A stretch of 64,000 bases of DNA from a bacterium (GCA_043744615.1 JAYTUJ010000030.1:1329-65328); one strand, 5' to 3'. Shown: positions 1-49,441, numbered from the stretch's first letter. Translations and numbers: made by a program. Notes: generated by a model from the sequence alone, not told the origin.

Positions 1-378
1 CGCTAACTTTTTTAGATTTTCTTTTTCAGTTTCTGCTGCAATCATCAATATCATAAAACCGAAATCAAGAGACCATAATGGAAAAGCAGAAATAAAAGGA
101 ATTGCTTTTCCAATCATTATTCCAATACCTACAAGGAGTAATTTAATAATTATCTTTCCTTTAAATAGTTTTTTTCTATTTAAAAATGAGACACCTGTGT
201 ATAAAGTACTCATTCCTAGATCAATAAGCCAGTCCATAATTTCACCTATTCCAATTAAATCTAAAATTGGTGAAAGTATGAGTTGAACAAGATCAACACA
301 GCAGATAAAAATCATAAATATCATCCAAATTGGATGTTCCCCAATAAATTTTAAGATTTTTGCAAAAGCATCTAACAT
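1..378 (-). CDS. Partial multi-TM membrane protein, start-coupled to the VirB4 stop, continues past the window edge. T4SS-associated by position (PrgK/PrgL slot).
   Basis: Hand translation of the reverse strand from the ATG at 376-378 is open through position 1. It shows three or more hydrophobic helices. The VirB4 stop (380-382) lies 1 nt from this ATG. Confidence 0.45.
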   Translation of the reverse strand, partial: MLDAFAKILKFIGEHPIWMIFMIFICCVDLVQLILSPILDLIGIGEIMDWLIDLGMSTLYTGVSFLNRKKLFKGKIIIKLLLVGIGIMIGKAIPFISAFPLWSLDFGFMILMIAAETEKENLKKLA

Positions 379-379
379 A

Positions 380-2251
380 TTACATACTTTCTAACTCCTT
401 TTTTGCTTTTTGAATCGCTAATACTTGTGAAGGGTCTGAGGTAATAATTTGATCTTCGGTGTATGAAGCAATAACTTTGAGGGCTACGTGTTTTGATCCC
501 GCAAAAAAGATACCTTCCCCTACTCCTGATTCGAGTAATAAGAATTTTTCTTCATCGGTGAGGTTAAATGTTTTTTGTACAGCATCAATTGATGACGGAG
601 ACTGTTTAAGTAAAATTTGAATTGATGAGTTGGTAATAATCGGTACACCGTATGGTGAACTCATAAAGTCTTCAACGTCTTGGGTGATTGTTGCTAAACC
701 AAGATAATATTTTCGACATCGTTTTGCTAAACCAAGCAAAAACGAAGCGGTGTCTTCTGATTTCATCATCCACCAAGCCTCGTCGATAACAAGTAATCGC
801 TTGCGAAGTTTTTCTCGGATTGCATTCCAGATGTAATGCATAACAATATACATCGCCACAGGTTTGAGTTCGTCTTCCATGTCTCGTACTGAAAACACAA
901 TGAATTTTGCATTAATGTTTACGTTTGTTGGTTTGTTAATAAACCCTGCCCACGTACCTTTTGTATACTTTGTCATTTTTTGTGACAATGATTCAGCTCC
1001 TTCCATTCCAGAAAGAACCATTTCAAAGTCAGATAATAATGGTGGTTCTACGTTTGAAAAATCAGAGTCGGGAGTAATATCTTTAAGTGCGTATGTTTCA
1101 CTAATTGCTCGGTCGATGATTGCATCTTCTTCGGGAGAAAGCCCTCCAAGCATAAGTCGAAACAAGCCAACAAGATTAATAATGTTTGAACGTAATACAT
1201 CTGAAGCAGATTCGTCTTCACGAGCTTTTGGTAGATCAAACGGGTTAATGTGGTGTTCAGACGTTAAAGAAATATTAAAGTATCGCCCCCCTGTTGCTTC
1301 AGCCATGTATTCATATTCTCGTTCGGGGTCGATTACAATTACATCAGTTTCAAACATGAGTGTTCGAAGAATTTCGAGCTTTGTCATATATGATTTTCCA
1401 GAACCTGCTTTAGCAAATGTTACTGAGTTGTAGTTTTCAAGTGAAAATCGATCAAACAAAATCAAACTTGAGTTGTGTCGGTTGATTCCATACAAAATTC
1501 CTTTGTCTGAAGTAAGGTCAAACGATACGAATGGAAACAAACTTGAAAGCGGCGAAGAGTTTAGTTTTGAGTGTACTAAAAGTTCATCGTTTCCTAATGG
1601 AATAATACTTCTGAATGCCTGTTCTTGTTGAAACAGTGCAGGTTTTACATACACTAATTTTGCTTCAAGAATTGATTTAATTTCAGATTCTATTTTATCA
1701 AGCTCTGCATCGTTTTCACCGTAAATAGAAATGTATAAACCAACATCAAATATTTTTTCTTGAGCTTGTTGTAAGTTGTCTCGTAAACTTTCGAGATCTT
1801 GATATGCAGTATCGAGCATCGGGTCTCGTACCATACCTTTACTTTCTCGGTCGGCAATTTGGCTTTGTACCTCGGCAACCTTTTTTTGAAACGTTCGTAA
1901 AATATCAGACGTATCAATTGGATGGATAAAAATCGAAACATCAAAAACTTTGTCGAGGTTAATAATCGGGGAGAACCAGTTTTCAGAAAGGAAACGAGGA
2001 TATGAGATAACAAAAAATGATCGCACAATTTTGTCGCCAAGATTCAGTGATCGAGGAGTAACTTTTAATGCTGATGGAGCAATGATATCGCGGAGCTCTA
2101 AGTTTGCAGCACTATAAATTTCTTGTGGCAAAATAGAAGTAACCCCTTGCTGTGGTGCAGTGTTTTTGTTTCCTCCTCCAAATAATGTATTAAATATTCC
2201 CATATTATTTTGCAAAGTTACCCATAATGTTTGCTGGCTTATCGATTTCAC
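380..2251 (-). CDS. virB4: VirB4/PrgJ/TcpF-family type IV secretion ATPase
   Basis: Walker A is GSGKSY and Walker B is LLVIDEAWW. The N-terminal IAPSALK motif is typical of Gram-positive VirB4 homologues. The called start is a GTG; an in-frame ATG at 2201-2203 sits 1 nt after the upstream ORF's stop. Confidence 0.85.
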   Translation of the reverse strand: MKSISQQTLWVTLQNNMGIFNTLFGGGNKNTAPQQGVTSILPQEIYSAANLELRDIIAPSALKVTPRSLNLGDKIVRSFFVISYPRFLSENWFSPIINLDKVFDVSIFIHPIDTSDILRTFQKKVAEVQSQIADRESKGMVRDPMLDTAYQDLESLRDNLQQAQEKIFDVGLYISIYGENDAELDKIESEIKSILEAKLVYVKPALFQQEQAFRSIIPLGNDELLVHSKLNSSPLSSLFPFVSFDLTSDKGILYGINRHNSSLILFDRFSLENYNSVTFAKAGSGKSYMTKLEILRTLMFETDVIVIDPEREYEYMAEATGGRYFNISLTSEHHINPFDLPKAREDESASDVLRSNIINLVGLFRLMLGGLSPEEDAIIDRAISETYALKDITPDSDFSNVEPPLLSDFEMVLSGMEGAESLSQKMTKYTKGTWAGFINKPTNVNINAKFIVFSVRDMEDELKPVAMYIVMHYIWNAIREKLRKRLLVIDEAWWMMKSEDTASFLLGLAKRCRKYYLGLATITQDVEDFMSSPYGVPIITNSSIQILLKQSPSSIDAVQKTFNLTDEEKFLLLESGVGEGIFFAGSKHVALKVIASYTEDQIITSDPSQVLAIQKAKKELESM

Positions 2252-2846
2252 CCGGATTAAATAATTTATAGAAAAGTTCTACAAGTTCTTCGGTTCCAAG
2301 CGATACTGTTTTTATTCCCGCACTTGAAAGCCCTTGTTCTACAACGGCAACTCGTTGTTCAAGTTGGCTTCGATGTTCTTCAAATGTTTGGTTTTCTGTA
2401 ATTTTATTTTTTTTACCAATACCAAGCATGCTCCCTATTCCTTTTGATGTATCAAGTGTTGGTGGGCTATATGGTACAACAACAAAAAAAGTTTTTGTCA
2501 TAATGTTTACACTTTCGGTAAATGCTCGGATGAATTCAATATATTCTTTTGTTTGAATTCGCATTAAGTCTGTTGGTTGTGCTTTATAACGATCTTCAAG
2601 TAAAAGTAAATATGGTTTTATATCAAGTCGTCGTGACTGCATAAAAATTTGAACAGAAAAGTTAAGAGAGTTTAAAAAGTTTTGAAATTGCAAAATAATT
2701 GCTGTTTGCTCGTCACCACTTTTGAGTGCAAAGTTAAGTGACGAGGTCATTACAAGTCCTCGCATTGAGCCATCTTTTAAAATTAAGATGCCGTCACGGA
2801 CTTCTTTGATTGGAACGAATTCTTGTGTAGGAGCTGAGTTTGCCAT
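2205..2846 (-). CDS. Hypothetical cytoplasmic protein, translationally coupled to virB4
   Basis: 213-aa ORF. Its stop at 2205-2207 is followed by 1 nt and then the virB4 ATG. No recognisable motif. Confidence 0.5.
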   Translation of the reverse strand: MANSAPTQEFVPIKEVRDGILILKDGSMRGLVMTSSLNFALKSGDEQTAIILQFQNFLNSLNFSVQIFMQSRRLDIKPYLLLLEDRYKAQPTDLMRIQTKEYIEFIRAFTESVNIMTKTFFVVVPYSPPTLDTSKGIGSMLGIGKKNKITENQTFEEHRSQLEQRVAVVEQGLSSAGIKTVSLGTEELVELFYKLFNPGEIDKPANIMGNFAK

Positions 2847-2858
2847 GTATGTATTGTA

Positions 2859-3338
2859 CTAGATTGTAAACGAGTCTGAAACATGGTCTTCCTCACCCTG
2901 TCTAAAACTTTTTCGAGTATTATTACGACTGCTTATTGATTCATTAATATCTAAACTCCACGTAAGGTCGCGTAATTTTGAATCATTTAATTTAGGAACA
3001 AACACTGGTTGTTCATTTGAATTAACAGCACCCATTTGGGTTTGGCTGTTAGTTATTTGCTTTTTCTCCCAGACATATAATTTTTTCCCAAGTGCGTATT
3101 TGATGATGTCATCAACACTTTCTAAAAAAGGTTTTTTGGGATTAACTCGATAAAAAGCAAGTGCTCCTGAAAAAGCACCAACAGGTAACATTAAAATTAG
3201 TGCAACTGGTAATGGTAAAAATTTATAGAGGGTATAACAGATTCCCCCGCCACCGACAATATAAATAAATTGTTTGAGTGTAAATGGCCCAAATATTTTA
3301 TCTTCGATTTCAATAAATTGAGGAACTTGATATCGCAT
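2859..3338 (-). CDS. PrgI-family (VirB3-like) small membrane protein
   Basis: The N-terminal pattern YQVPQFIEIEDKIFGPFTLKQFIYI followed by two hydrophobic helices matches the PrgI/VirB3-like family. The position between the VirB6-like gene and virB4 fits MPF-FATA gene order. Confidence 0.55.
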   Translation of the reverse strand: MRYQVPQFIEIEDKIFGPFTLKQFIYIVGGGGICYTLYKFLPLPVALILMLPVGAFSGALAFYRVNPKKPFLESVDDIIKYALGKKLYVWEKKQITNSQTQMGAVNSNEQPVFVPKLNDSKLRDLTWSLDINESISSRNNTRKSFRQGEEDHVSDSFTI

Positions 3339-3375
3339 GCGTGCTTTTATTTTAGCACATTTTTTGCCGATTAAT

Positions 3376-4161
3376 TTAGTTTATCGGTTCTCGGTACGGG
3401 TCACTGTGTTTAGCGGGCTCCGCAGAAAATTTATTTGCTTTTAAATTTTCTGCTACTACGTTTGAAGTTGGATTGTTTATCGAAACTCCAGAGACAACAG
3501 ATTTTTTTGTTTTATCAGCAAGAAAATCTTTCGTAAAACCAATTGGGGCCATTGATGTGGGCGATGCGATTGATGTTGTCGGTGCAGGCATACTCGATTG
3601 TGCTGGTTCCGTTTCGGTAAATTCTATCACTGGGATTGGTTTTGCAATGGCTGGTTTTATAAGATTAACACTTGAAGCAACCGCAGCAGAAAAAGTTGGT
3701 ACGTTTTTAATCACCGCACCTGTTTTGAAGGGTTGTTCTATTTCTTTGAGTACATCGTTTCTTGTTAGGTCACTATGATCTTCTTCTGCGTGAGGGTCGT
3801 ACTCAGAAACATCATATGCATTTTTTGTCTTTTCACCTTTTTCACCATACAAATCAATCATTTTTTGCTTGATCGGTTTGAATATTTTTTCATCAATGTC
3901 GTGAACAATTTGATCAGCAATATTTTTTTCAATCCCAATTTCTTTGCAAATCATATGTGAGAATTCATTTCCAGGAATGAAACCCATCATCACGTCGATA
4001 GTCATATTAATTAACTGACCTTCTGAATCGATGTGGAGTTTGTGGGCTGTGCCTATTTCATGAATCTTTTCCCAATTTTCATCCGTACTAATTACATCCT
4101 GCACTTCTTGCGGAAGTTTGTTAAAAGTAGCTCTATATTTTTTTCCTGTTATAAATTGCAT
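3376..4161 (-). CDS. Hypothetical soluble protein within the T4SS-like operon
   Basis: 261-aa ORF with no TM segment. The C-terminus is low-complexity and Pro/Ser/Thr-rich. Confidence 0.5.
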   Translation of the reverse strand: MQFITGKKYRATFNKLPQEVQDVISTDENWEKIHEIGTAHKLHIDSEGQLINMTIDVMMGFIPGNEFSHMICKEIGIEKNIADQIVHDIDEKIFKPIKQKMIDLYGEKGEKTKNAYDVSEYDPHAEEDHSDLTRNDVLKEIEQPFKTGAVIKNVPTFSAAVASSVNLIKPAIAKPIPVIEFTETEPAQSSMPAPTTSIASPTSMAPIGFTKDFLADKTKKSVVSGVSINNPTSNVVAENLKANKFSAEPAKHSDPYREPIN

Positions 4162-4171
4162 ATTAATTATG

Positions 4172-7100
4172 TTAAGGAGTTATTATTGATGATTTTGAAC
4201 TTTCTGAAGCAGCTTTAATTTTTTCACGAGCAGTAGTTGTTAATTTATCAGCAGAATGTCCGCTCAATCCAATAAACCTACCGTCTCCGTTGTCTGCAAA
4301 TTTTTCAGCCTTTGAATAATGAACAGATTCTTTGTTAATTGTATCTTTTAGATTATCTATTTCACCTTTGATAAATCCTTTTTCCACATCAGTTTTTGTA
4401 CCCTTTGTACTCTCTAACTCGTCCTCTTTTTTAATTAAGAGTGTTACATTTTTGTCCAAAGATTCTTTTTGATTTTTTAATTTTTCTTTAAAAAGATTTG
4501 CAACAGTATCAAAATCATCTTCTTGCAGTTTTTTAGAACTGATTAAACTTTTTAATAATTCAGGAGTCATACGATCTTGAAAAGCAGCACCATGATTTTT
4601 AATAAGATCGGAAAGAGTTTCTTTGTTTAGTCCGCCCAACTGAGCATCGTTTAATGTAGTTAATTGAGTTTTAACAGCACTAGATTTTTCTGCAGGAGTG
4701 GTTGTCGTTGAGTCTAGAATATGCTGTGTTTCGGTTTGATGGTACGATAAATGACCTTCTTTTGCACGGTTTCTTTCTTGGGTTACTGCGTCCGAAGTTT
4801 TAAAATATTGAGTTTCTTTCCCTGTAATAGGATCTTTCGGTTTTGCCATTGCTGTAAGTGAGCCCTTTTTCTCAAAATAATTGTCTTGAACAGCTTGTTC
4901 TTTTGGTGAAAGGCCTTCATATATTCTTTTTGCTCGGTCGTACGAGGTAGGATCTTTTTTATCCTCAGCAAGTTTCTTTAAGTGCGAAGCAAGTTTTTCG
5001 GGTTTATTTCTAACTTCTCTTGCATACGCATCATCATTTTTCTCAAGCATTTCAGTTTTTGCTTTTAGACTTTGAACAAAAGGTAAGCCTCCTGTTGAGT
5101 TTCCGTGTGAGTCAACCCCAGCCTTGCCCCCCAGACTAAATTCTGTAGCAGCATGAGTCAGAGCGATTTGTTTTCTTGCCCACTTACCTCGCCAAGTATC
5201 CTGAGTCGCCTGTCTTTTTAGTTCCTCCCCCTCTTCACTATTTTCAAGTCTGTGTTCTGCATTATGAGCAAACTGATTCCATTTTTTTTGTGGATATGCT
5301 AATACAGCACCTTTTGCAAAATTAGTCCCTTTACTTCGCATTTTTGCAAATAATGCAGCAGAATTTTCAGCACCGCTTATTCCAAGACGTTTACTGATAG
5401 TCACTGAAAATATAAGCATGGTAATGAGAATTATAAAGTTCAAGACCACACCCAACGCACTTGTTTTTGGTGTATCGCTAAAGGCAGAAGAAAAAGCGGT
5501 AAGTCCTAAACCGTCTTTAAAAGTAGGATCATTAGCTATCCGCAACACTACCCAGATCATGATCAAAAATGCAGGGGCATAAATAGCATTATTAATTAAA
5601 GACTTTTTCCATTCATTACTCATTTCTTCTCCACCCGGAAGTATTGGTGCGACAAACGCAAGTGGAGACAGTATTAAAAGACCAATAAAAGTTACAAATC
5701 TTCCGATAAAAGTAAGGGTTACCGCAAGCATGACAATTGTAAAAAAGAATGCAAATATAATACCCATTGCAAAAAGTAAAAATGGATGTTCGCTTCGAGC
5801 AAAATTACGCCCCGGATCAGCGTCTACTGCATTAGGTGTTTTACCATCAGCATAAAAAGATTGTATACGAACTATCGATAATAGAGCCGTCCCTAGTTTA
5901 CTTTGTGTAATATTTGCTTTTGTATCACCATCTTGAAATGTTATATGACTATAAAATTCAGTTGCAACAATGTTTGATGCATCAATAATTGCTTTGGTAA
6001 AAAATAGACTAAAGTTTATTAACAGCGCTGCAATAATTAGCTTGCTGATTAACTGTTTTACGTTGTATGTATGTAGTTGAAGAATGGTTCCGATTGATGC
6101 ATAAATAAGTGCAAAGATAAAAAAAATGTTTGAGAGATCTCTAAAAGTTTTCCATGCGTCATTAATGACGGTCATGCGTTTTATCTGATCACTCATATTT
6201 AAAACCGTTTTGTCAAAAACTAAATCAAATAGACTTGCTATCCAACCAGCAAGCCACATAAATGCAAACATTATGTAGTAGAGTCCTTGAGTAACACAGT
6301 TAATTAAATGGAAATTCAAAGGATTAAGACTACAAGTACCATCGTCACCAACAGTTCTTCCATTCTGGATTTTAGACAAATCTTTAGGATTTAGTGTTGT
6401 ATTCGCTAATTCCTTATTAGCAGAAGCTTCTTGATTGCGTGTATTTGTTGCAATACCTAATAGCTTTGCAAGTTGAGGTTGATTGTTTATACTACCATCC
6501 CCTCTTTTTTCTGCGGGATTAGTAAAATAAGCACTATTACTATCGTTTTTCCATATCCAGGTTGTTCCATAGTTTGACATGTTTCCATCGCTATACACTG
6601 TTCGTAGATCGTATGCTCCACAGCCATGTTCTTCAGCAGGATTAAATCGAACAAGCCATACTCCTGTTACAAAATCGTCCGCAGAATTTGGTTTTTGATC
6701 GGTTCCTGGGTTATATCGAATTATGTAAGTTTCACTTTTTGTACTATTTTGCAGAGGAACACTTATAAAGTATTCTGCTCTACCGTTTACTAAGGTAGCT
6801 GTGTTCAACTCTATTTTTGTATTTACTTGTTTTGTTGTAGCGTTTAAATCTTTTACATTCCAAAAAATTTGTCCATCAACTGCAGTCCCTCCTCCTGCTC
6901 CTACAAAACTACTTTCACTCTGGTTTTCTTGAGATATAGATATTCTTTTCGCCGCATCTAAATTTACAGAGGTCTGACCGTTTGTCCCATCAGAATATCC
7001 TTTATTACCATAAGTTGCGGTACATTGTTGAGGTGTGTAAAGAGTGTGGTATTGAGGGTCGTTATCATTTGCAATTATTGAAGCTTTAGTATAATCCGCA

Positions 7101-7189
7101 ACAAAAAACTGCCCCACAAACAGCACAGACAAAAAAATCGCTGAAAGCAGTTTGTGTTTTTTTGTTTTTTTGTTGCGTGGTGTGAACAT
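4172..7189 (-). CDS. VirB6/TrbL-like polytopic membrane protein, with a signal peptide, a ~270-aa ectodomain and a ~400-aa hydrophilic coiled-coil tail
   Basis: Signal/anchor at the N-terminus, then 5-7 hydrophobic helices around aa 300-620 typical of VirB6/PrgH/TcpH. A long K/E/T-rich C-terminal region follows. Confidence 0.6.
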   Translation of the reverse strand: MFTPRNKKTKKHKLLSAIFLSVLFVGQFFVADYTKASIIANDNDPQYHTLYTPQQCTATYGNKGYSDGTNGQTSVNLDAAKRISISQENQSESSFVGAGGGTAVDGQIFWNVKDLNATTKQVNTKIELNTATLVNGRAEYFISVPLQNSTKSETYIIRYNPGTDQKPNSADDFVTGVWLVRFNPAEEHGCGAYDLRTVYSDGNMSNYGTTWIWKNDSNSAYFTNPAEKRGDGSINNQPQLAKLLGIATNTRNQEASANKELANTTLNPKDLSKIQNGRTVGDDGTCSLNPLNFHLINCVTQGLYYIMFAFMWLAGWIASLFDLVFDKTVLNMSDQIKRMTVINDAWKTFRDLSNIFFIFALIYASIGTILQLHTYNVKQLISKLIIAALLINFSLFFTKAIIDASNIVATEFYSHITFQDGDTKANITQSKLGTALLSIVRIQSFYADGKTPNAVDADPGRNFARSEHPFLLFAMGIIFAFFFTIVMLAVTLTFIGRFVTFIGLLILSPLAFVAPILPGGEEMSNEWKKSLINNAIYAPAFLIMIWVVLRIANDPTFKDGLGLTAFSSAFSDTPKTSALGVVLNFIILITMLIFSVTISKRLGISGAENSAALFAKMRSKGTNFAKGAVLAYPQKKWNQFAHNAEHRLENSEEGEELKRQATQDTWRGKWARKQIALTHAATEFSLGGKAGVDSHGNSTGGLPFVQSLKAKTEMLEKNDDAYAREVRNKPEKLASHLKKLAEDKKDPTSYDRAKRIYEGLSPKEQAVQDNYFEKKGSLTAMAKPKDPITGKETQYFKTSDAVTQERNRAKEGHLSYHQTETQHILDSTTTTPAEKSSAVKTQLTTLNDAQLGGLNKETLSDLIKNHGAAFQDRMTPELLKSLISSKKLQEDDFDTVANLFKEKLKNQKESLDKNVTLLIKKEDELESTKGTKTDVEKGFIKGEIDNLKDTINKESVHYSKAEKFADNGDGRFIGLSGHSADKLTTTAREKIKAASESSKSSIITP

Positions 7190-7226
7190 CTTTAATCTTT
7201 GTTTTTAATCTCCACTACTCTTTTAT

Positions 7227-8858
7227 TTACCGTGTTCCTCTTTGACGGGTTGTTGTGGCTCCTCGGTTTCGTGTTGTTGTGCTGTTTGTATTACCACTTG
7301 TGCCATCATTACTATTTGCGTAATTTTGAGTACTACCACTACTGTCATTATTTAAAACTTTGTTAAGCGCAAGTTTTACAAGTTCGTTAACAAGAGCACT
7401 TACGACTTGGTCAAATTGATTTGCTAACACTAGGCGATTTTCACCAAGGTTTAATCGATTTTCAACTTTTCCTTGGATAAGTTTACCAGGAGTTGTTACT
7501 TTACAAGGTTCTGTTGCTTTGCCGTTTACAATCGGTCCCTCACATTCTTTAAAGTCCATAAAACCGTTACCAATTTGACGTTCTGTTTGTGCAGAATTAT
7601 TTTGTTTTGCAATTCGTGCTTGCATTTCTTCTTGGGCCTGGTACTTTGCACCATAGTAGTTGTTATTTGGTTGAATTGTTTGAAAGAATCCGTCCATTCC
7701 CCCTTTGCTAAAGTCACCATTTGTAAATTGTTGGTAGTTTTGAGTATTTTGCATGTATGGGCTTAGTGTACAGCCTGACCGTTGTGAATATCCCGAGTTA
7801 TAGTTTACTTTATTTTGTTGATATTGCTGACCTAGGTTATTTTGATTATTTGTGCTTGTTCCTGTATGTACGTTTCCACCACCACCAGTCATACTGCTAC
7901 CGGTCATGTTATTGCTGTAACTATTTAAAAGTCCAAGTTGTACGTCGGTTCTGAAGGGTTGGCAGACCGTATTGCCTTGCCCGATTTCTTGTATAAAAGC
8001 TCCTGCGTTTCGGTCGGCAAGGTTTTGAAAATATTTATCAGGGTTTTCTAAAAAGGCTGGGTTACCATTAAATCCTGATTTAACCCATTCAATTGTGCTT
8101 TGTGCAATATATGTAATCAGGGCGTTTACGATACAGTACCCTACTGAGTCCCAACTGATTCCTGTTGGAATACCGAATACAACAAGACCCGTTTCTTTTG
8201 CATTCAGTGATTTTGGAGCAACAGGAACTTGAGGGTCGGTTTCACTACTAAATAATGAACCGATAAGGTTTCCCGCAATAGTCAAAGCTGCTCGCGCAAC
8301 TGCTTGTCCTAAAATTCCACCAATACATGCACCCGCGGCACCAACACCCGCGGTCTTTGCTGACCGTTGTTGAGTCGTACTCCCATTACCTGTTTGTGCT
8401 AATGAGTTCGCACGTTGATTTACTTGCGCAGCATTTGCTTTTTGAGCTGCCGCCTGTGCCTGGGTGTTTTTAGCATCGGCAGCTTTTTGTTGTGCAGTTT
8501 TTGTTTGATTTGAAGAGTTTTTATTTATGTTATAGTCGTCGGGATTTAATGTTTGTTTAGAAGAAGTTTTTATTAAATTTCCATTTGCATCGTAGGTATA
8601 ATCTGGATTTTGTTGAGAATTAACCTGTTCTTGTTGGTTTGTGTTTCCAAAAGTGTACCCTCCTTCGTTATTTGGATCTTGTGCACTTCCTGCATCAGCA
8701 CCAGCCTGTTGCTGCTGAGCCTCATCACCACTTGTATCTAAAATTATAGCCGCAAAAGTTTGTAATGGAAATGCAAAAAATACTTGAGAAAGCACCATCA
8801 CTAAAAAAAGAAGACTTGATGTTGTTTTTAGTGTGTGTGAATAAAATGTTTTCTTCAT
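7227..8858 (-). CDS. Secreted Gln/Asn/Ser/Thr-rich protein with a central Gly/Ala hydrophobic segment
   Basis: N-terminal signal peptide. Q/N-rich low complexity flanks a GVGAAGACIGGILGQAVARAALTIAGNLIGSLF segment. Confidence 0.55.
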   Translation of the reverse strand: MKKTFYSHTLKTTSSLLFLVMVLSQVFFAFPLQTFAAIILDTSGDEAQQQQAGADAGSAQDPNNEGGYTFGNTNQQEQVNSQQNPDYTYDANGNLIKTSSKQTLNPDDYNINKNSSNQTKTAQQKAADAKNTQAQAAAQKANAAQVNQRANSLAQTGNGSTTQQRSAKTAGVGAAGACIGGILGQAVARAALTIAGNLIGSLFSSETDPQVPVAPKSLNAKETGLVVFGIPTGISWDSVGYCIVNALITYIAQSTIEWVKSGFNGNPAFLENPDKYFQNLADRNAGAFIQEIGQGNTVCQPFRTDVQLGLLNSYSNNMTGSSMTGGGGNVHTGTSTNNQNNLGQQYQQNKVNYNSGYSQRSGCTLSPYMQNTQNYQQFTNGDFSKGGMDGFFQTIQPNNNYYGAKYQAQEEMQARIAKQNNSAQTERQIGNGFMDFKECEGPIVNGKATEPCKVTTPGKLIQGKVENRLNLGENRLVLANQFDQVVSALVNELVKLALNKVLNNDSSGSTQNYANSNDGTSGNTNSTTTRNRGATTTRQRGTR

Positions 8859-8865
8859 ATAAAAT

Positions 8866-9882
8866 TTATTGTAGGGTTTTTAGATTTTCCCATGCAAAAC
8901 CTTGTTCGTTTTCATCAAAAATTATACCATTTTTTTGAAAATAAGTTGCGATACTTTTAAACAGGTCAAGTTGGTGGGCTTCAAGTGCCTGATATGTTTT
9001 TATTCCAAGCAAACCTTTTAACGGATCTTCTTGATACGAAGCAATATTTTTTAATGATTCATATTGTGCATTATATGTATTTAATATTTCCACATGTGTT
9101 GTTGCAAAAACTTTTGGCACAGAGATAAGTGAAAGTTTTTCGGCAACATTTTTGTAAACAATAATTTCTGTATTTGAAAGTAGTTTTGATTGATCTCGAG
9201 AAGCAAACTTCGCAAGTTCTTTTTTGGTGACTTCAATTATTTCGTTTCCATATTGTTTTAATTCATCATTATTTTTTGGTGTAAATGTATGAATACTTGT
9301 GATTGAATATATTGGCTCAGTTGACGGAACATCAATTTTTCCGAGTACATTTGAAACAATTTGTTCTCGGCCAACATCGGAAACCTCACCATTTTGTTGG
9401 TTTGACATGTACTGAGTAAATAATTCTTGAGAAAGTTTGTCAGACAAAGTAGTTTTTAAGGTTGTCGTTGAGCCATCTAATGTGCTTGATGCAAAAGATA
9501 CTGAAGTTGTCATTGAATCATTGGGGCCAGCAATTCGTGGATCACGACTCATCGATATTTCGGCTCCATCAGTTGTTCCATCACCATCAGTATCTGCATT
9601 TTTTGGATCTGTTCCCCACACACTTTCTTCCCAATCTTTTATTCCATCACCATCAGTGTCGATATTGGATGCTGTATAAAATGCAGTAGAGGTACTAAAG
9701 TCCAAAACATTTTGTTCGTTATTTTTTGATGTTCGAGAAAAATCAATATTTGATATTTTTGAAAAACCAGCAATCGTTAAAATAATAATTGCAAAAATAG
9801 AAGCGATGAGTATACGAGAAGGTACTTGAGAAATTTTTGTGTAGATACGATTAAAGAAATTCATATCTAAATTATATATCAA
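8866..9882 (-). CDS. Membrane-anchored protein with thrombospondin type-3-like Ca-binding Asp repeats
   Basis: N-terminal TM helix. Tandem DTDGDGIKDWEE and DTDGDGTTDGAE motifs. The called start is TTG; an in-frame ATG lies 6 codons in. Confidence 0.55.
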   Translation of the reverse strand: MIYNLDMNFFNRIYTKISQVPSRILIASIFAIIILTIAGFSKISNIDFSRTSKNNEQNVLDFSTSTAFYTASNIDTDGDGIKDWEESVWGTDPKNADTDGDGTTDGAEISMSRDPRIAGPNDSMTTSVSFASSTLDGSTTTLKTTLSDKLSQELFTQYMSNQQNGEVSDVGREQIVSNVLGKIDVPSTEPIYSITSIHTFTPKNNDELKQYGNEIIEVTKKELAKFASRDQSKLLSNTEIIVYKNVAEKLSLISVPKVFATTHVEILNTYNAQYESLKNIASYQEDPLKGLLGIKTYQALEAHQLDLFKSIATYFQKNGIIFDENEQGFAWENLKTLQ

Positions 9883-9906: not shown

Positions 9907-11193
9907 ATGAAAAAAAATATCCCCCCTTTTTTATTCTCTTCTATTTTTTTTATTGCACTCAGTTTCTCGGTTCAAATTTCTTCAGTTTTTGCTGAAAATA
10001 ACGATTCACCAAATGTTGTTCTTACAAAAGATTTGCGTCTTACAATGAACGACCCCGAAATTGTTCATTTACAACAAGTTCTTAATGCGAGCGGTTTTGC
10101 TACGGTTTCTGTTGTGGGTGCAGGTTCTAAAGGAAGCGAAACTTCATATTTTGGACTTAAAACTCAACAAGCTGTTATAAAATTTCAAGAAGCATTTGCA
10201 AGTGAAATTTTGGCTCCAATCGGTTTAACACAAGGAACAGGCTTTGTGGGAGCAAAAACTCGAGCAAAAATGAATGAATTATGGTCAAATAACTACTTTT
10301 TCTCATATTACGGCATAGTTTTGCCAGCAAATACGACTGTTAATACAGATACAAGTACAAATACAGACTCTTCAAATCAAGATAATACTAATAACGCTAA
10401 TAATACCTTTAATAACCAAGGTAATTTTTCTCAAACATCAAGTACAACAACGGTTGCAACAAGTACTTCTGCAACAAGTACTGCCACAACAACAAAAACA
10501 ACCACAGCTTCAACAACAAAAACTATTTCAGGGACAGCATATGGAAGCTCAAATGGATATCGCCCCGGTAAAACCATTACAGACTTGTTGGGTGTATGGA
10601 GTGATCCGAATAATAAAGTGAAAGTGTATGAAGTAAATCCTTCTCAAGCAAAACGAGGAGATGAAATTTTAGTTGCAGGATCAGGTTTTACATCAAAAGA
10701 TAATACGATTAAGTTGCGAGGAAAAAGTAAAAATATTTTGATAAAAGGTGTTGAGTCAAAAACAAGTAATGAATTAACTTTTATTCTTCCACAAGGTGCT
10801 GAGTACGGAACGTCAACTGTGTCAGTCTCAAATTCTGCGGGTACCAGTAGAGAAGATTCTGTAAAATCTATTGAACTTATTGTCAGTGCAACAACGACAT
10901 GTGCAACGGTATGTGTCGACTCTGTTGATCAAAAAGGTCACGGTCTTAGCACAGAATTTATAGTTAAAGGAAGTGGTTTTACAGATTCAAAAAATTTAGT
11001 GATGTCACGATTTGGCCCAATTGGTATGTATGATTCTGAAAAGAAAGGAACAATCATAAATATAAAATTAATTGAATCAGGAGTGATTCTTAATGCGCTC
11101 CCTAACTTGAGTGGAAAAATTGATTTTCCAATTATCGTTGCTAACAAAAATGGTTTCTCTAAATTCTTTACGGTCACTGTATCGATGCCTTAA
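9907..11193 (+). CDS. Secreted protein with a peptidoglycan-binding (PG_binding_1-like) domain, a Thr/Ser/Asn-rich linker and IPT/TIG-like domains
   Basis: Signal peptide. LQQVLNASGF...LKTQQAVIKFQ resembles PG_binding_1. GDEILVAGSGFTSKDNTIKL and KGSGFTDSKNLVM resemble IPT/TIG. Confidence 0.6.
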   Translation: MKKNIPPFLFSSIFFIALSFSVQISSVFAENNDSPNVVLTKDLRLTMNDPEIVHLQQVLNASGFATVSVVGAGSKGSETSYFGLKTQQAVIKFQEAFASEILAPIGLTQGTGFVGAKTRAKMNELWSNNYFFSYYGIVLPANTTVNTDTSTNTDSSNQDNTNNANNTFNNQGNFSQTSSTTTVATSTSATSTATTTKTTTASTTKTISGTAYGSSNGYRPGKTITDLLGVWSDPNNKVKVYEVNPSQAKRGDEILVAGSGFTSKDNTIKLRGKSKNILIKGVESKTSNELTFILPQGAEYGTSTVSVSNSAGTSREDSVKSIELIVSATTTCATVCVDSVDQKGHGLSTEFIVKGSGFTDSKNLVMSRFGPIGMYDSEKKGTIINIKLIESGVILNALPNLSGKIDFPIIVANKNGFSKFFTVTVSMP

Positions 11194-11199
11194 TGCAGA

Positions 11200-11742
11200 G
11201 TGATAATTGTTAAAATAAATATGAAGTTATTTTTGTTAAAACAAATAAAAAAGATTATCCGGACATCAGCTCTCGTCTTTGTTTTTATTTGTTTTGTATC
11301 ACTTGGTACATTTAGACATATATATGCGGCTGGTGTTGGTGGAGCTTCTGGAGGTGGAACTGGCGGCGCAACGAGTGGCGCAAGTGCAGGCGGTGGCGCA
11401 GGGGGTTCTTCGGGTGGTGGTTCTGGTAAAACAACAACATATACAAATTTTGGAAGTGAACGCGACACAGTGCTTCCTTGTTTATGTGATTGGGAAGAAG
11501 GAGAAATAAAATTTATTGTGTACCACACAACAATTCCTGACGGCAATTCATTAACTCTTGTGTACAATCTTTTAGAATCAAAAATAAAAGAAAATTATAA
11601 CGTAACTGGAAAATATTATTTAGGACAATATTCATCTCAAACAGATACATGTAATTTTGGAATCGGATATTATTGCGTTGAATTAACTGGTCAAAAATGG
11701 CCAACATGGGGTGACTCATCAACCGGTATTGGAGCTTCTTAA
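11200..11742 (+). CDS. Small secreted protein with a Gly-rich linker and a Cys-containing C-terminal domain
   Basis: Signal peptide, a (GGx)n tract, then a domain with CLC...C...C. Confidence 0.5.
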   Translation: MIIVKINMKLFLLKQIKKIIRTSALVFVFICFVSLGTFRHIYAAGVGGASGGGTGGATSGASAGGGAGGSSGGGSGKTTTYTNFGSERDTVLPCLCDWEEGEIKFIVYHTTIPDGNSLTLVYNLLESKIKENYNVTGKYYLGQYSSQTDTCNFGIGYYCVELTGQKWPTWGDSSTGIGAS

Positions 11743-14825: not shown

Positions 14826-15857
14826 ATGGGCGCTTCAATATTTTTGTGGCCGCTAGTTACTAATGCGGGCGCCCTCTCTTTTATCAATGATCTGTTTAAA
14901 ACAGACCAAGCACAAGCTCAAAAGGTTGAAGTTAAATCAGAAAGTTCACAAACAATAGATCTTCCTGAGGCTGCTATAAACCCAGATCCTAACCCTATTA
15001 AAAATACTGTCTCTCCTACTATTGTTGGAGAGGCAGCTTTTGTTGCTGAATCTGGACCCGAAGGAACATCTGCAGATATTCAAAGTAAAACAATATCAAG
15101 CGACCATATTTCAGTATATGTTGTTCATCCTTCAGATACATTGGCTCAAATAGCAAAAATGTTTAATGTTTCACCAAATACAATTCTTTGGGCCAATGAT
15201 TTAACCTCTGCTAAAGACATAAAACCAGGGCAGAGTCTCGTTATTTTACCAGTATCTGGAATCAAATATTCTGTTAAAAAGGGCGATACCATAGAGTCTA
15301 TTGCTAAAAAGTTTAAGGGTGACGCTCAAGATATTACTAAATTTAACGATTTTGACTCTGATCAAAAGTTAGTCATTGGGGACACTGTTATTATTCCAGA
15401 TGGTGAAATGGTTGTTGTGGTTAAAAAACCTACTATTGTCGTAAAAGGTGCAGGGATGAAAATCTTTAAAGATGACGGAAGCCTTGTAAAAACATTTTTG
15501 GCTAATACAACAGGATATTTTATGCGCCCTATTACTGGTGGGATGAGAACACAAGGTTTACACGGAAATAACGGTGTTGACCTTGCAAGCTCGTGCGGTG
15601 CTTCTGTTATGGCTGCAGCAGGAGGAAAAGTTATTTTAAGTCGAGAAGGAGGATGGAACGGAGGCTACGGAAATTATATCGTTATCAGTCATTCAAACGG
15701 TACTCAAACTTTGTACGGACACTTGCAAGAGACAAAAGTCTCAGCCGGAGAATCAGTTGATAAGGGTGAAGTGATTGGTCTAATGGGAAGCACAGGTAAT
15801 TCAACAGGCTGTCACCTTCATTGGGAAGTTCGAGGAGGACGAAACCCACTTGGCTAA
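14826..15857 (+). CDS. LysM-domain M23 metallo-endopeptidase (cell-wall hydrolase)
   Basis: Two LysM-like repeats (YVVHPSDTLAQIAKMF; YSVKKGDTIESIAKKF). The M23 motifs HxxxD and HLHWEV are present. Confidence 0.8.
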   Translation: MGASIFLWPLVTNAGALSFINDLFKTDQAQAQKVEVKSESSQTIDLPEAAINPDPNPIKNTVSPTIVGEAAFVAESGPEGTSADIQSKTISSDHISVYVVHPSDTLAQIAKMFNVSPNTILWANDLTSAKDIKPGQSLVILPVSGIKYSVKKGDTIESIAKKFKGDAQDITKFNDFDSDQKLVIGDTVIIPDGEMVVVVKKPTIVVKGAGMKIFKDDGSLVKTFLANTTGYFMRPITGGMRTQGLHGNNGVDLASSCGASVMAAAGGKVILSREGGWNGGYGNYIVISHSNGTQTLYGHLQETKVSAGESVDKGEVIGLMGSTGNSTGCHLHWEVRGGRNPLG

Positions 15858-15885: not shown

Positions 15886-17367
15886 CTATTTTTTTCTAAA
15901 TTGAATTGCTTCAAGCACGTGTTCTTTTTTTACTGTATCTGAAAACTCAATACAAGCAATTGTTTTTGCTATTGAAATTATTTTTTCTCTTGACCGCATT
16001 GATATACCGAGTGACTCGATGCAATTATTTACAAGCTCAAGAGCGTCTTTTTCTATACTAATATTTTTTTTATCAATTTTTCGCACCCGATAAATATTTT
16101 CTTGAATCACTTTATAGTTTTTTAATATCTCTGTTTCGTCCCCCACTATTTCTTCTTTGTTTTTTATTGCAGATACTTCACACCATATATCAATACGGTC
16201 TTGAATCGGCCCAGATATTTTTTTTAAATATTTTTTGATTTCAAATAGTCCACATGAACACAATTTAACATTTGAATTAAGATACCCACATGGACAAGGA
16301 TTAAGTGTAAATATAGCTATAAAATCACAAGGGAAAGATACGAGTTCTTTGTTTTTGTATATTTGGATTACTTTTTGTTCAAGGGGTTGTCGTAAAGACT
16401 CAATAACTCTTCTATCAAATTCAGGAAATTCATCCAGAAAAAGAATTCCTTTGTGTGCAAGAGTTATTTCTCCAATCATATTATTTTTTACACCACCTAT
16501 TATTTGTGCGTAAGAAGAAGTCGGATGCGGGTTTCTAAAAGGGACAGAAAAACAAATGTGTTTGTGTATCTGAGCAGCAGAGTATATACAACTAACTTCT
16601 AGTAAATCATCATCACTTAGTGCTGGTAATAAATGTTTTGCGATGTAAGCTAATGTTGTTTTTCCCGCTCCGGGTGGCCCTTGAAATGCAATATGGTGTT
16701 TGCCCGCACAAGCTATTTCAAGTGCACGCAGTGCATTTTTTTGTCCATACAATATCGGTATAGAATTTTCATTTTTATCTTGATTGTTCGATAAAGTTTT
16801 TTCAGAAATTTTATCGAAAATTTTTTCTTTATAGACTCCCTTAAAAAAGCTAATAACGTCCTGAACTTTTTCTATATAAATTATATTTTTTGATTGTATA
16901 TTTGTTTCTAAAATAGAAAGCTCAGCTTTGTTTTTTAAAGGGACAAATATAAAGGACATGTTATGCTCAAAAACTTTTTGTATCATGGGTAATATACCTG
17001 TTGCAGAAAGTACTGTTCCATCAAGTGAAAGCTCGCCAATAAATAAAGATAATTCTGTCTGTTTGTTTTTTATTTCACCACAAGAGATAAGATATCCAAC
17101 AGCAATTGCAAGATCAAACATTGAACCCTCTTTCTTTTGATCCGAAGGTGTCAGGGAGACAATTACTTTATGATTTTTTCTTTTTGGTGTAGGGAGTTTT
17201 GAATTTTTTAAAGCAGAACAAACTCTTTCTCTTGCCTCACCCACTGCTTTGTCCGGCAATCCCACAATTGAAAAATTATATAGTCCTATTGATACGTCAA
17301 CTTCAACAGTTACAACGTAACCGCTTACTCCTTGTATTTGTGCTGAAAAAACTTTAGCTACACTCAT
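15886..17367 (-). CDS. comM: YifB/ComM-family Mg-chelatase-like AAA ATPase
   Basis: Lon-like N-terminal domain, Walker A GPPGAGKTT, and ChlI/YifB C-terminal signature regions. Confidence 0.8.
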   Translation of the reverse strand: MSVAKVFSAQIQGVSGYVVTVEVDVSIGLYNFSIVGLPDKAVGEARERVCSALKNSKLPTPKRKNHKVIVSLTPSDQKKEGSMFDLAIAVGYLISCGEIKNKQTELSLFIGELSLDGTVLSATGILPMIQKVFEHNMSFIFVPLKNKAELSILETNIQSKNIIYIEKVQDVISFFKGVYKEKIFDKISEKTLSNNQDKNENSIPILYGQKNALRALEIACAGKHHIAFQGPPGAGKTTLAYIAKHLLPALSDDDLLEVSCIYSAAQIHKHICFSVPFRNPHPTSSYAQIIGGVKNNMIGEITLAHKGILFLDEFPEFDRRVIESLRQPLEQKVIQIYKNKELVSFPCDFIAIFTLNPCPCGYLNSNVKLCSCGLFEIKKYLKKISGPIQDRIDIWCEVSAIKNKEEIVGDETEILKNYKVIQENIYRVRKIDKKNISIEKDALELVNNCIESLGISMRSREKIISIAKTIACIEFSDTVKKEHVLEAIQFRKK

Positions 17368-19925: not shown

Positions 19926-20897
19926 ATGTCGGAAAATATGCAGATAAAACTATCTGATTTAAAAAGGCAGTTTCTAGAATACTTAGAAATTGAAAAAGGC
20001 CGTAGTTTAAAGACAATTAGCAACTACGATCGTTATATTTCTAGCTTTTTAACACATACAAAAGAAGAAAACCCTTCTGCTATTAGTGATAATATGCTTC
20101 GGGAATACCGAATGTCATTAAATAGAAGGGAGTCCGGTGTTATTGAGAGTGGAAGACGTGCAACCCTAAAGAAAAAGACTCAAAATTACTACTTAATCGC
20201 AATAAGAGGCTTTTTAAAGTATCTAGCAAAGATAGGTATAACATCTTTACCTGCAGAAAGGATTGAATTAGCCAAAGTTGGTGATAGATCGCTTGATTTA
20301 ATGAGTAATGAAGAGTTAAAAAGGTTATTAGCTGCTCCATCTGAGTCTGATCTCAAGTCGTTGAGAGACAAGGCTATATTAGAGATGTTATTCTCAACAG
20401 GGTTACGAGTCTCCGAACTTTGCTCTTTAAATAGGGATATTGACCTCACAAAAGATGAATTATCTGTTCGAGGTAAGGGTGATAAGGTAAGAGTTGTGTT
20501 TATATCTGAAGAAGCAAAAAATATACTTCAGCTTTATCTTAAAAAAAGAGATGATATGGACGAAGCTCTATTTGTTCATATTGCGCTAAAATCAGCCAAG
20601 TCTAAAGAAGAAGATGTTTCACGTAAAACAATTTCACGTGAAACAATGAGATTAACCAGCCGATCAATAGAAAGAATTGTAAAGTATTACGCTGTAAAAG
20701 CTGGAATATCAAAAAAAGTTACACCTCACGTCGTAAGACATAGTTTTGCTACTGATTTGCTTATAAATGGTGCAGATCTTCGCTCTGTGCAGATGATGTT
20801 GGGTCATGCAAATATATCTACAACTCAAGTTTACACACACTTTACTGATAAACAGTTAAAAGACATACATAAAAAGTTTCACGGGAAACAAAATTAA
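19926..20897 (+). CDS. Tyrosine site-specific recombinase (XerC/XerD family)
   Basis: C-terminal HVVRHSFATDLL ... LGHANISTTQVYTH catalytic motifs. Confidence 0.85.
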   Translation: MSENMQIKLSDLKRQFLEYLEIEKGRSLKTISNYDRYISSFLTHTKEENPSAISDNMLREYRMSLNRRESGVIESGRRATLKKKTQNYYLIAIRGFLKYLAKIGITSLPAERIELAKVGDRSLDLMSNEELKRLLAAPSESDLKSLRDKAILEMLFSTGLRVSELCSLNRDIDLTKDELSVRGKGDKVRVVFISEEAKNILQLYLKKRDDMDEALFVHIALKSAKSKEEDVSRKTISRETMRLTSRSIERIVKYYAVKAGISKKVTPHVVRHSFATDLLINGADLRSVQMMLGHANISTTQVYTHFTDKQLKDIHKKFHGKQN

Positions 20898-38733: not shown

Positions 38734-38739
38734 TATTAT

Positions 38740-43669: not shown

Positions 43670-43672
43670 TTC

Positions 43673-44500
43673 ATGGATACGCTCAGTTTGTTTCACAAAG
43701 AAAGTTACACAGTATTTACTGACGGGTCTTCTCGAGGTAACCCAGGTCCGGGGGGCTTTGCGGCAATCGTTATATTACAGCGTATTTCGAATGTGTACTC
43801 ATCTTGTGAAACATATGTTTCAGAAATCGGGGGATTTGAGCCGAATACTACGAATAACAGAATGGAGCTCAGTGCAGTCATAAAGGGGATTGCATATATT
43901 CTTCAAGATATAGAGTCAAAAAAAGTTTCTTCAGATGATATTCCTGTAAACATATACCTCGATTCTGCATATGTACTTAATGGAGCTACAAAATGGATAT
44001 ATGGATGGCAAAAGAATAACTGGGTAACATCACAAAAAACTTCTGTTGAAAATCAAGATTTATGGAAAGAACTTGTTGAAGCTTTGGTTATAGTCAAAGA
44101 CAAGAATATAAAAATTACATGGACAAAAGTTAAAGGTCACAACGGTGTTATTTTAAATGAACGATGCGATGAGATTGCTACAAGTTTTGCAACGAAAGAA
44201 AATATTGTGTTATACACTGGTAAACTTGAAACATATCGCATAAAGATTACTACAGAAGAAATTAATAATGGAACTTTTTTAAATACTACACAAAGCACAA
44301 GTTCTATTAAAAAGTCTTCATCAAAAAATAAACCAGCCTACTCGTATATCAGTTTAGTAGATAAAAAAGTCTACATAGACCATTCTTGGATTGATTGTGA
44401 AAAAAGAGTCAAAGGTAAGTCGGGTGTGAAATTTAAAAAGTCTTTAAATGCTGAGGACGAGCAAAATATTATAGCGGACTTTAAAAAGTTTTTAAACTAA
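43673..44500 (+). CDS. rnhA: Ribonuclease HI with a ~120-aa C-terminal extension
   Basis: VFTDGSSRGNPGPGGFAAIV ... TNNRMEL ... the HNGVILNERCDEIA catalytic core. The extra C-terminal domain is unassigned. Confidence 0.75.
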   Translation: MDTLSLFHKESYTVFTDGSSRGNPGPGGFAAIVILQRISNVYSSCETYVSEIGGFEPNTTNNRMELSAVIKGIAYILQDIESKKVSSDDIPVNIYLDSAYVLNGATKWIYGWQKNNWVTSQKTSVENQDLWKELVEALVIVKDKNIKITWTKVKGHNGVILNERCDEIATSFATKENIVLYTGKLETYRIKITTEEINNGTFLNTTQSTSSIKKSSSKNKPAYSYISLVDKKVYIDHSWIDCEKRVKGKSGVKFKKSLNAEDEQNIIADFKKFLN

Positions 44501-44539
44501 ATTCAGTTTTTCTTTAGTTCTCTAGTGTAGGTTGTATAC

Positions 44540-48368: not shown

Positions 48369-48425
48369 TTTTATCTTTTAAATACTTGCATTACACTATT
48401 TTGTATAGTAAAGTATGTGCCACAA

Positions 48426-48839: not shown

Positions 48840-48847
48840 TAAATTTT

Positions 48848-49318: not shown

Positions 49319-49441
49319 TCTCACTAAACTAAAAATTAAACAGGTCGCAAGGCCTGTTTTTTTATTGCAAAGATACAAATTTAATGCTATTTTATCTGCA
49401 CGACCTAACTAAGTCGGCTTGTTTATTTATTATTATTTTTT

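Follow-up and report, generated by a model that had tools for sequence, protein, structure and literature searches.

The window analysed here is a 64-kb stretch of bacterial DNA (64,000 nucleotides; GCA_043744615.1 JAYTUJ010000030.1:1329-65328), and its first 9882 positions were found to hold a chromosome-encoded type IV secretion system (T4SS) cluster of an ultra-small Paceibacteria bacterium (CPR/Patescibacteria, CPR standing for Candidate Phyla Radiation). This cluster is near-universal in the group and probably vital for living on a host cell. With a probability of about 0.8, positions 1-9882 are the upstream two-thirds of a vertically inherited Paceibacteria (Parcubacteria/OD1, CPR) T4SS locus lying between uvrD-ksgA and yidC-rnpA-rpmH-dnaA. 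The system is most likely non-conjugative, belonging to the Patescibacteria clade derived from the mating-pair formation class MPF-FATA and building a pilus or tube for host interaction. Its inner-membrane core, which is complete and under constraint, is of the monoderm (MPF-FATA-like) type and comprises a VirB4 ATPase, the N-terminal domain of VirB4 as a detached TrsD-like protein, PrgI, which is VirB3-like, and a polytopic protein resembling an extended VirB6; the core genes are interspersed with those of fast-evolving exported proteins. The finding is correct but already known, having been described in papers of 2023-2025, and the interpretation given in an initial annotation of this DNA, made by a model from the sequence alone, coincides with the published one (PMC12102498, PMC10633639, PMC12857230).

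The open reading frames (ORFs) of the cluster are given in Table 1. Listing and translation of the ORFs agreed with the initial annotation in placing eight of them on the minus strand; the spacers, from the first to the eighth gene, were 7, 37, 10, 37, 12, 1, and 1 nt. All eight were uninterrupted, and each had syntenic orthologues under constraint. The gene order read there, namely a polytopic giant, PrgI, VirB4 and a protein with several transmembrane (TM) helices, was borne out by profile matches and the TM map. Furthermore, the exported Q/N-rich protein and the Asp-repeat protein were both present, as were the divergently transcribed secreted proteins on the flank and, later in the window, the type IV pilus/ComEC set (PilB, PilC, ComEC, ComM, RecJ, and RecA). 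The count of four ORFs without a family signature was right for Pfam and NCBIfam (the 1005-, 543-, 261-, and 126-aa products). The proposal of an eight-gene operon stood for the window itself, but the unit is longer in relatives, where it continues past position 1. For the comparison with relatives, one genome per GTDB species was scanned, which gave at least 596 loci with a close VirB4. Eighty of these were examined by ORF calling and BLAST against the proteins of the window and of one reference locus (L003, on a 981-kb contig), and about 40 species-level Paceibacteria loci had full flanks.

Table 1. Coordinates of the T4SS genes, of their neighbours in the window, and of the pilin-domain fusion genes of four related loci.
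Position	Strand	Gene or product	Details
1-378	-	Small polytopic membrane protein	N-terminal 126 aa; crosses the window edge
380-2251 (ORF); 380-2203 (gene)	-	VirB4 ATPase	607 aa from the ATG at 2203
2205-2846	-	TrsD-like protein, the VirB4 N-terminal domain as a gene of its own	213 aa
2859-3338	-	PrgI/VirB3-like small membrane protein	159 aa
3376-4161	-	Protein without TM segment	261 aa
4172-7189	-	Putative extended VirB6-like polytopic channel subunit	1005 aa
7227-8858	-	Exported Q/N-rich protein	543 aa
8866-9882	-	Bitopic membrane protein, first operon gene	332 aa from the likely ATG at 9864
9907-11193	+	Exported protein	428 aa; PG_binding_1 at 2.3e-6; signal/TM helix
11200-11742	+	Exported Gly-rich protein	180 aa; signal/TM helix
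11772-14567	-	ksgA (rRNA dimethyladenosine transferase) and uvrD/pcrA-type helicase	Housekeeping genes forming a conserved edge of the locus
L029:12844-14256		Pilin-domain fusion	Pilin 232-293 and M15_4 397-458
L051:6558-8756		Pilin-domain fusion	Pilin 495-563 and VanY 620-730
L038:12871-14616		Pilin-domain fusion gene	
L057:8523-9938		Pilin-domain fusion gene	

The identity of VirB4 was examined with profile hidden Markov models (HMMs), a check that the initial annotation had proposed, and strong matches were obtained. The protein matched NCBIfam conju_CD1110 over profile positions 182-734 of 752, with an E-value of 3.3e-111 and 372.9 bits (cutoff 325), and Pfam P-loop_TraG at 8e-27. Further NCBIfam matches were those to the VirB4 of Mycoplasma integrated conjugative elements (ICEs; Mbov_0397, 3e-78), TraC-F (2e-55), and VirB4_CagE (2e-37), the best profiles, CD1110 (Clostridia) and Mbov_0397 (Mycoplasma), thus standing ahead of TraC-F and VirB4_CagE. 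The nearest solved structure was that of the VirB4 from the Firmicute Thermoanaerobacter (PDB 4AG5, 5.5e-42, versus 8e-7 for TrwK of R388). Both the Walker A (AKAGSGKS) and the Walker B (LLVIDE) motifs were intact. The search for VirB4 homologues returned more than 8000 sequences; the best 120 of them were 81-85% identical and 599-703 aa long, and those of the 120 with a lineage name were Parcubacteria, Paceibacterota or Patescibacteria, a few being labelled only '[bacterium]'.

VirB4 is naturally split into a TrsD-like N-domain gene (213 aa) and an ATPase gene (607 aa), as in pGO1-type systems. The N-domain is separately encoded, as the 213-aa product covers positions 2-111 of the CD1110 profile and the 607-aa protein positions 182-734. 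The 213-aa product also matched NCBIfam TrsD/TraD (4e-5) and VirB4_plasma (positions 101-233), and a precomputed match of the TrsD-like gene to PF26593 (TraC-like) is on record. This gene ends with a TAA at 2207-2205, and the ATG of VirB4 follows one base on, at 2203. In 77 of 81 related loci, a TrsD-like gene of about 213 aa lay immediately upstream of VirB4. The split is not a lesion, since the two-gene layout is conserved in relatives and the Walker motifs are intact. In-frame recoding of TGA as the cause of the split was rejected, the stop being TAA and the frames lying one base apart.

The partners expected beside VirB4 were found next to it. PrgI (159 aa) matched Pfam PF12666 at 7e-10, above the gathering score, and public contigs carry the same assignment; it is expected to anchor VirB4 at the membrane. 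In the TM map, the 1005-aa protein showed a signal/TM helix and then an N-domain of about 270 aa outside the cytoplasm; at least six TM helices (303-596) followed, and a cytoplasmic tail of about 370 aa rich in K and E. The suggested VirB6 HMM search was successful only in part: the 1005-aa protein itself had no direct Pfam or NCBIfam match, the VirB6 models included, but Pfam TrbL/VirB6 matched 5 of its 39 syntenic orthologues, at best with 1.3e-5. Moreover, four of these orthologues matched CD3337/EF1877, three MMCAP2_0566, and one Mbov_0396; all eight matches were to membrane-protein families of monoderm (Firmicutes/Mycoplasma) ICEs. The invariant residues of the family lie in the TM block (W346, N392-F393-S394, D403, N406, and R497). 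A profile search of PDB with the family returned only coiled-coil or low-complexity noise. An "extended VirB6" architecture like that of the 1005-aa protein has been described in a FEMS review (PMC12857230), and the protein is best regarded as a putative extended VirB6-like channel subunit, linked to VirB6 only through its orthologues.

The chromosomal position of the locus was conserved. The order from uvrD-ksgA through the T4SS to yidC-dnaA was the same in essentially all of the about 40 loci with full flanks, most of which showed uvrD-ksgA-T4SS at the upstream end. In the reference locus L003, ksgA (with an RrnaAD match on record) is followed by two divergent genes, a protein with thrombospondin-type-3 (TSP3) repeats, proteins of 638, 991 (polytopic), and 288 aa, PrgI, a TraC-like/TrsD protein, and VirB4. 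Then come proteins of 377, 330, 681 (T4SS_pilin), and 406 aa, and after the 406-aa gene yidC, rnpA, rpmH, dnaA, and dnaN. The extension past position 1 that the initial annotation had called for could thus be made in relatives, where 3-4 more genes of the operon precede yidC-rnpA-dnaA-dnaN: envelope genes were met first, then yidC, rnpA, rpmH, dnaA, and dnaN, with no VirD4, relaxase or origin of transfer (oriT). The additional genes encode a small membrane protein, an immunoglobulin-like (Ig) repeat protein (the 330-aa gene, a triple Ig-like repeat), a VirB2-like pilin fusion, and a membrane-anchored beta-propeller (the 406-aa gene, with a TM anchor). The ksgA/uvrD side of the locus lies inside the window, and the dnaA side was seen in relatives only, beyond the position that corresponds to position 1. 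Many GTDB representative metagenome-assembled genomes with the Paceibacteria-type locus (L004-L083) are titled 'uncultured Candidatus Saccharibacteria bacterium'. These titles look like a generic or mistaken submitter label, because the records share about 80% VirB4 identity and an identical synteny with Paceibacterota/Parcubacteria records.

The pilin-domain gene of the relatives is the third downstream of VirB4 or, in loci that lack the small membrane protein, the second. PF18895 (T4SS_pilin) was found in 36 of the 40 downstream orthologues, and the pilin domain was fused in one ORF to polymorphic domains: Peptidase_M15/VanY, NlpC/P60, YkuD, Amidase_5, SLT_3, CHAP, and TIG. An HxxGxxD motif of the LAS type was present in 12 of the 40 orthologues. 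No mention of such fusions was found in the sections of the 2025 survey consulted (PMC12102498). The pilin profile had no match anywhere in the 64-kb window; in relatives the pilin gene falls at a position that would be outside it. Likewise, no paralogue of the Ig-repeat, pilin-domain or propeller families of the relatives was present in the window.

The degree of conservation differed strongly between the genes. In 15 genomes carrying all 14 compared genes, the median pairwise identity of VirB4 was 78%, a value that may be slightly inflated because the loci were chosen by VirB4 similarity. The TrsD-like protein (61%) and DnaA (60%) came next, followed by KsgA (48%), PrgI (48%), DnaN (47%), and YidC (41%). 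Lower values were obtained for the pilin-domain gene (37%), the Ig-repeat gene (31%), the 543-aa family (31%), the propeller (31%), the VirB6-like protein (28%), the 261-aa family (27%), and the TSP3 protein (25%). Constraint is thus stronger on the cytoplasmic motor than on DnaA, which initiates replication, and the exposed parts (25-37%) diverge fast. This pattern suggests that purifying selection acts on the T4SS motor.

The genes that would mark a conjugative element were searched for. Neither the window nor the 10 kb flanking the locus on each side in about 40 related genomes held a coupling protein, relaxase, integrase or att repeats. The window proteins scanned had no match to relaxase families, and in about 40 related loci, examined over +/-10 kb, the operon had no unassigned neighbour gene of relaxase size. 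The search for att-like, oriT-like or notable inverted and direct repeats gave only chance-level AT-rich matches and the coding repeats of the TSP3 protein. The only FtsK-like ATPase in the 64 kb (62727-63998) is a chromosomal translocase and not a coupling protein, because it has an FtsK gamma domain. The initial annotation, which had seen neither VirD4 nor a relaxase nearby, was right in this respect. Its preference for a contact or secretion apparatus over plasmid transfer is supported by the flanks of the relatives and the VirB4 HMM matches, the function itself being inferred. In addition, none of the operon proteins matched VirB9 or VirB10 families in Pfam and NCBIfam; the TrsD/TraD match and PrgI, without any outer-membrane core match, are what an MPF-FATA system would show.

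Three other explanations were weighed against a resident, non-conjugative T4SS. The locus could be an ICE or its remnant, with VirD4, relaxase, and oriT just outside the window. The homology of the core genes to those of Firmicutes/Mycoplasma ICEs and pGO1-type plasmids speaks for this, as does a XerC/D-type recombinase gene at 19926-20897, read from the sequence only. However, a mobile element would be expected at variable sites, with atypical composition and a patchy distribution, and here the same place and order from ksgA to yidC-dnaA were found in about 40 species-level genomes, with representatives of at least 596 species carrying a close VirB4. The 10 kb on each side held housekeeping genes without a relaxase or coupling protein, VirB4 was more conserved than DnaA, and there was neither a shift in GC content nor a flanking repeat. 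An ICE is therefore very improbable, and the idea is largely refuted. The second explanation, a decaying, non-functional cluster with a frameshift-broken VirB4 and half of its genes unrecognisable, could draw on the two abutting VirB4 ORFs with their change of frame and on the four ORFs without a family match. Against it, the arrangement of about 213 aa plus about 605 aa recurred in 77 of the 81 related loci and in all of the best 120 VirB4 matches, and it equals the TrsD and TrsE layout known from pGO1-type systems. Both Walker motifs are intact, and all eight uninterrupted ORFs have constrained syntenic orthologues. The pseudogene explanation is refuted by this conservation and deserves practically no credence; both it and the ICE are effectively excluded.

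The third explanation, an import machine, is a T4SS working in reverse, like ComB of H. pylori or the archaeal Ced system, and taking up DNA, RNA or nucleotides of the host as food, possibly in cooperation with the ComEC/ComM/RecJ/RecA set of the same window. It is compatible with the genes for ComEC, ComM, RecJ, RecA, PilB, and PilC in the window and with a weak similarity of VirB4 to CedB (1e-7). A 2026 preprint proposed feeding on host RNA, with tubular structures that are maybe T4SS pili, and reported a monophyletic VirB4 in Minisyncoccota (bioRxiv 10.64898/2026.06.21.733656). Furthermore, the FEMS review speculates on the uptake of host molecules via the pilus (PMC12857230), and ABY1-class T4SS loci adjoin comF, recG, and radA (PMC12102498). 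However, CedB scored 31 bits (cutoff 700), a similarity of the P-loop only; CedD reached 16 bits (cutoff 600), and no other Ced or ComB family matched. No recognisable nucleic-acid-binding component was present in the operon. In Southlakia, deletion of comEC abolished competence but not viability, and the T4SS was essential (PMC12857230); therefore, ComEC-dependent DNA uptake is not the essential role. Import is thus an unlikely explanation, and it is a sub-case of the host-interaction T4SS, differing only in the direction of transport and the cargo.

Several points weigh against the host-interaction T4SS proposed here. We infer the pilin, Ig-repeat, and propeller genes of this genome from synteny, because these genes are not in this window. 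No VirB8-like (NTF2-fold) bitopic component, which would be expected of MPF-FATA, was found in the operon. A coupling protein or relaxase could sit elsewhere in this genome, and VirD4-like matches far from virB4 have been reported for many genomes in the 2025 survey (PMC12102498). Essentiality has been shown in a Saccharimonadia species only and not in Paceibacteria (PMC10633639). The choice of loci by VirB4 similarity, given above with the identity values, counts on the same side.

The properties of the locus were compared with those of published systems. In the survey of Quiñonero-Coronel et al. (2025, Microb Genom, PMC12102498), VirB4 was found in 2417 of 3035 Patescibacteria genomes and formed one monophyletic clade that lies inside MPF-FATA (support 97/98%). 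According to the same survey, TrsD, VirB3, VirB6, and VirB2-like pilins adjoin virB4, VirB8 is seldom detected, relaxases occur in only 103 genomes, and the Paceibacteria locus lies near dnaA, dnaN, rnpA, ksgA, and rpmH. The present locus agrees in the type of VirB4, the adjoining TrsD homologue, PrgI/VirB3 and VirB6, and the lack of a relaxase. It also agrees in the nearby pilin genes (here in relatives), in ksgA on one side, and, again in relatives, in rnpA/rpmH/dnaA/dnaN on the other (PMC12102498). No essential difference was noted, and the window is one more instance and a typical member of the described Patescibacteria T4SS. In Saccharibacteria, the T4SS and its pilins were essential for the epibiotic growth of Southlakia, and no recognisable coupling or relaxase proteins accompanied the system (Wang et al. 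2023, Cell, PMC10633639). The FEMS review summarises this essentiality and speculates on a pilus conduit (PMC12857230). In addition, T4SS pilin genes were highly expressed in Paceibacterales on methanogens (PMC10936435), and tubular structures were seen at the parasite-host interface (bioRxiv 10.64898/2026.06.21.733656).

The cluster SEML1_0006-0019 of Southlakia epibionticum ML1 is alike in its Gram-positive-like subunits and pilins, in the lack of a recognisable coupling protein or relaxase in the cluster, in a position near the origin (judging by locus tags), and in the proposed role in host interaction. It differs in belonging to the class Saccharimonadia and in its array of six VirB2-like pilins, each separate, with peptidase/lysozyme genes downstream; in the Paceibacteria relatives, one pilin-domain fusion gene stands in place of this array. 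The trs module of the Staphylococcus plasmids pGO1/pSK41, the prototype of MPF-FATA, whose gene order is generally known, has the same consecutive trio of a VirB3-like protein (TrsC/PrgI), TrsD, and a VirB4 without N-domain (TrsE). However, pGO1 is a plasmid that lacks a VirB2-like pilin and carries a relaxase, an oriT, and the coupling protein TrsK. It also has no recognisable VirB6 according to the survey (PMC12102498), unlike the present locus with its extended VirB6. The ICEs of Firmicutes/Tenericutes (the CD1110-type VirB4 of C. difficile, the CD3337/EF1877 membrane protein, and Mbov_0396/0397 of the Mycoplasma ICE) gave the best profiles for VirB4 and the polytopic orthologues; they are mobile and have their own DNA-processing genes, whereas the present module is core-chromosomal and lacks such genes nearby.

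The 543-, 261-, 332-, and 126+-aa components remain without a known family. A single N-terminal TM helix (residues 18-36) anchors the 332-aa protein, which also carries a calcium-binding TSP3-type Asp repeat (TSP3_bac 3.6e-8) and an extracytoplasmic all-alpha helical-bundle domain (residues 140-330). Comparison of its family with PDB profiles, like that of the 543- and 261-aa families, gave coiled-coil or low-complexity noise only. By its bitopic topology it was the only candidate for a VirB8-like protein, but this was rejected because of the all-alpha bundle. The 543-aa protein has a signal peptide, a Q/N-rich low-complexity spacer, and two hydrophobic/glycine-zipper helices. Its conserved, Cys-containing core of about 260 aa (7344-8141, minus strand) carries a WINSGFNGNPAF...TPG motif. 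No Pfam, NCBIfam or PDB match was obtained for the protein, and yet the core represents a large unnamed family, with 3708 cluster representatives (50% identity) at E <= 1e-3 and 2165 at E <= 1e-10; none of 10 sampled representatives among the distant members carried a name. The orthologues append variable adhesin-type C-terminal domains (F5/8-type-C, Ig-like or fn3). The AF2 model of the core from 21 sequences was uninformative (pLDDT 47.7), and Foldseek of this poor model against PDB gave nothing at E <= 0.001. A relation to divergent pilins or to the VirB6-like protein was rejected, since hhalign aligned the signal peptides only.

The N-terminal domain of the 261-aa protein (about 110 aa) is conserved; a variable Pro-rich linker and a near-invariant C-terminal DPYREPI follow, and no TM segment is present. 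In the alignment of 40 orthologues, D254, P255, Y256, and E258 were invariant or nearly so; none of the 40 members had a Pfam match, and the family had no PDB match. The DPYREPI sequence looks like a docking peptide, and the protein is proposed to be a cytoplasmic accessory or adaptor. The 126-aa fragment shows four hydrophobic segments and an IP...LPLW motif. It was weakly similar (E 4e-4 to 0.01) to the small gene with 2-4 TM helices found after VirB4 in most of the listed related loci, and it probably belongs to this fast-evolving family of small membrane proteins. No Pfam family was found for the fragment or for nine of its counterparts.

A possible mechanism can be outlined for the machine. 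At the cytoplasmic membrane, PrgI, the TrsD-like protein, and VirB6 would serve as the docking site of VirB4 hexamers, and the use of ATP by VirB4 would extract VirB2-like pilins from the membrane. The extracted pilins might then form a short pilus or tube through the cell wall, aided by the fused hydrolase domains, while the Ca-binding helical-bundle, Q/N-rich, Ig-repeat, and propeller proteins could make up a wall-spanning scaffold or a host-contact surface. The machine would serve epibiotic or parasitic host interaction, either for protein export or as a conduit for host material, and not conjugation. A bolder and rather doubtful extension is that the Paceibacteria T4SS may be an essential feeding organelle, a VirB4-driven tube with pilin-domain proteins at its tip or along its lining, through which host macromolecules such as RNA or nucleotides are drawn in. 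In that case, the pilin-fused M15/VanY, NlpC/P60, YkuD, amidase, and SLT domains may breach the envelope of a specific host. If true, this would explain why the motor is more conserved than DnaA, why the locus is locked beside oriC, and why the fast-evolving exposed parts swap adhesin and hydrolase modules between species. The 543-, 261-, 332-, and 126+-aa proteins would then be a new wall-spanning architecture replacing VirB8 and the Gram-positive adhesins.

Much of bacterial diversity belongs to the Patescibacteria, whose members live on other cells, and the T4SS is among the few machines that nearly all of them keep; in the one tractable species it is essential. The window adds no new kind of system and is a clean Paceibacteria example. 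What is added here is that VirB4 is more conserved than DnaA, that pilin-hydrolase fusions are polymorphic, that the exposed components are modular and hypervariable, and that four conserved components are without a family, of which one was shown not to resemble VirB8. Among the conserved proteins of the locus, about half have no family or fold, one of their families being nameless with about 3700 cluster representatives. For structural and genetic studies of the way in which ultra-small bacteria draw on their hosts, these unnamed proteins are concrete targets.

The slot between ksgA and the T4SS operon was variable and held 0-2 unrelated divergent genes in relatives; the two divergent exported proteins at 9907-11742 are occupants of this slot and not core components. 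Just beyond uvrD, the product of a plus-strand gene (14826-15857) is, as read from the translation, an exported protein in which LysM-like repeats are combined with an M23-type peptidase motif (HLHWE) at the C-terminus; it could be another cell-wall enzyme close to the T4SS locus. In the composition profile, the GC content was 0.30-0.38 over the window; it was about 0.35 in the operon as well as in the neighbouring genes and did not shift at the operon. The scan for promoters and terminators gave counts equal to the shuffled expectation, and a single consensus-only promoter-like site was located at 9911-9882, upstream of the first operon gene. The Rfam scan of the window found only four tRNAs, all distant and none inside the operon.

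Some other features of the window were recorded. The stop codons of the 68 called genes were 54 TAA, 14 TAG, and 0 TGA, and TGA occurred 1185 times out of frame. In homology-supported genes of 83 related loci, TGA made up 8.9% of the stops (79 of 889), against which 0 of 68 has P ~0.002. This may reflect a lineage-specific avoidance or loss of TGA stops, and no sign of in-frame TGA recoding was seen in the window. The competence and recombination genes (ComM, PilB, PilC, RecJ, ComEC, RecA, and FtsK) are scattered over 15886-17367, 36979-39948, 41936-46039, and 61175-63998. ComEC matched the DUF4131 and Competence domains only, with no match to a metallo-beta-lactamase domain. Moreover, the ribosomal-protein cluster (48417-61089), whose gene identities were read from translations only, seems rearranged. 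The block S12-S7-EF-G-S19-L22-S3-L16-(L29)-S17-L14-(L24)-L5 lies at 48.4-55.2 kb and the block EF-Tu-S10-L3-L4-L23-L2 at 57.1-61.1 kb, so that S10 to L2 are downstream of S19 to L5; one minus-strand gene and a TatD-like gene lie between the two blocks.

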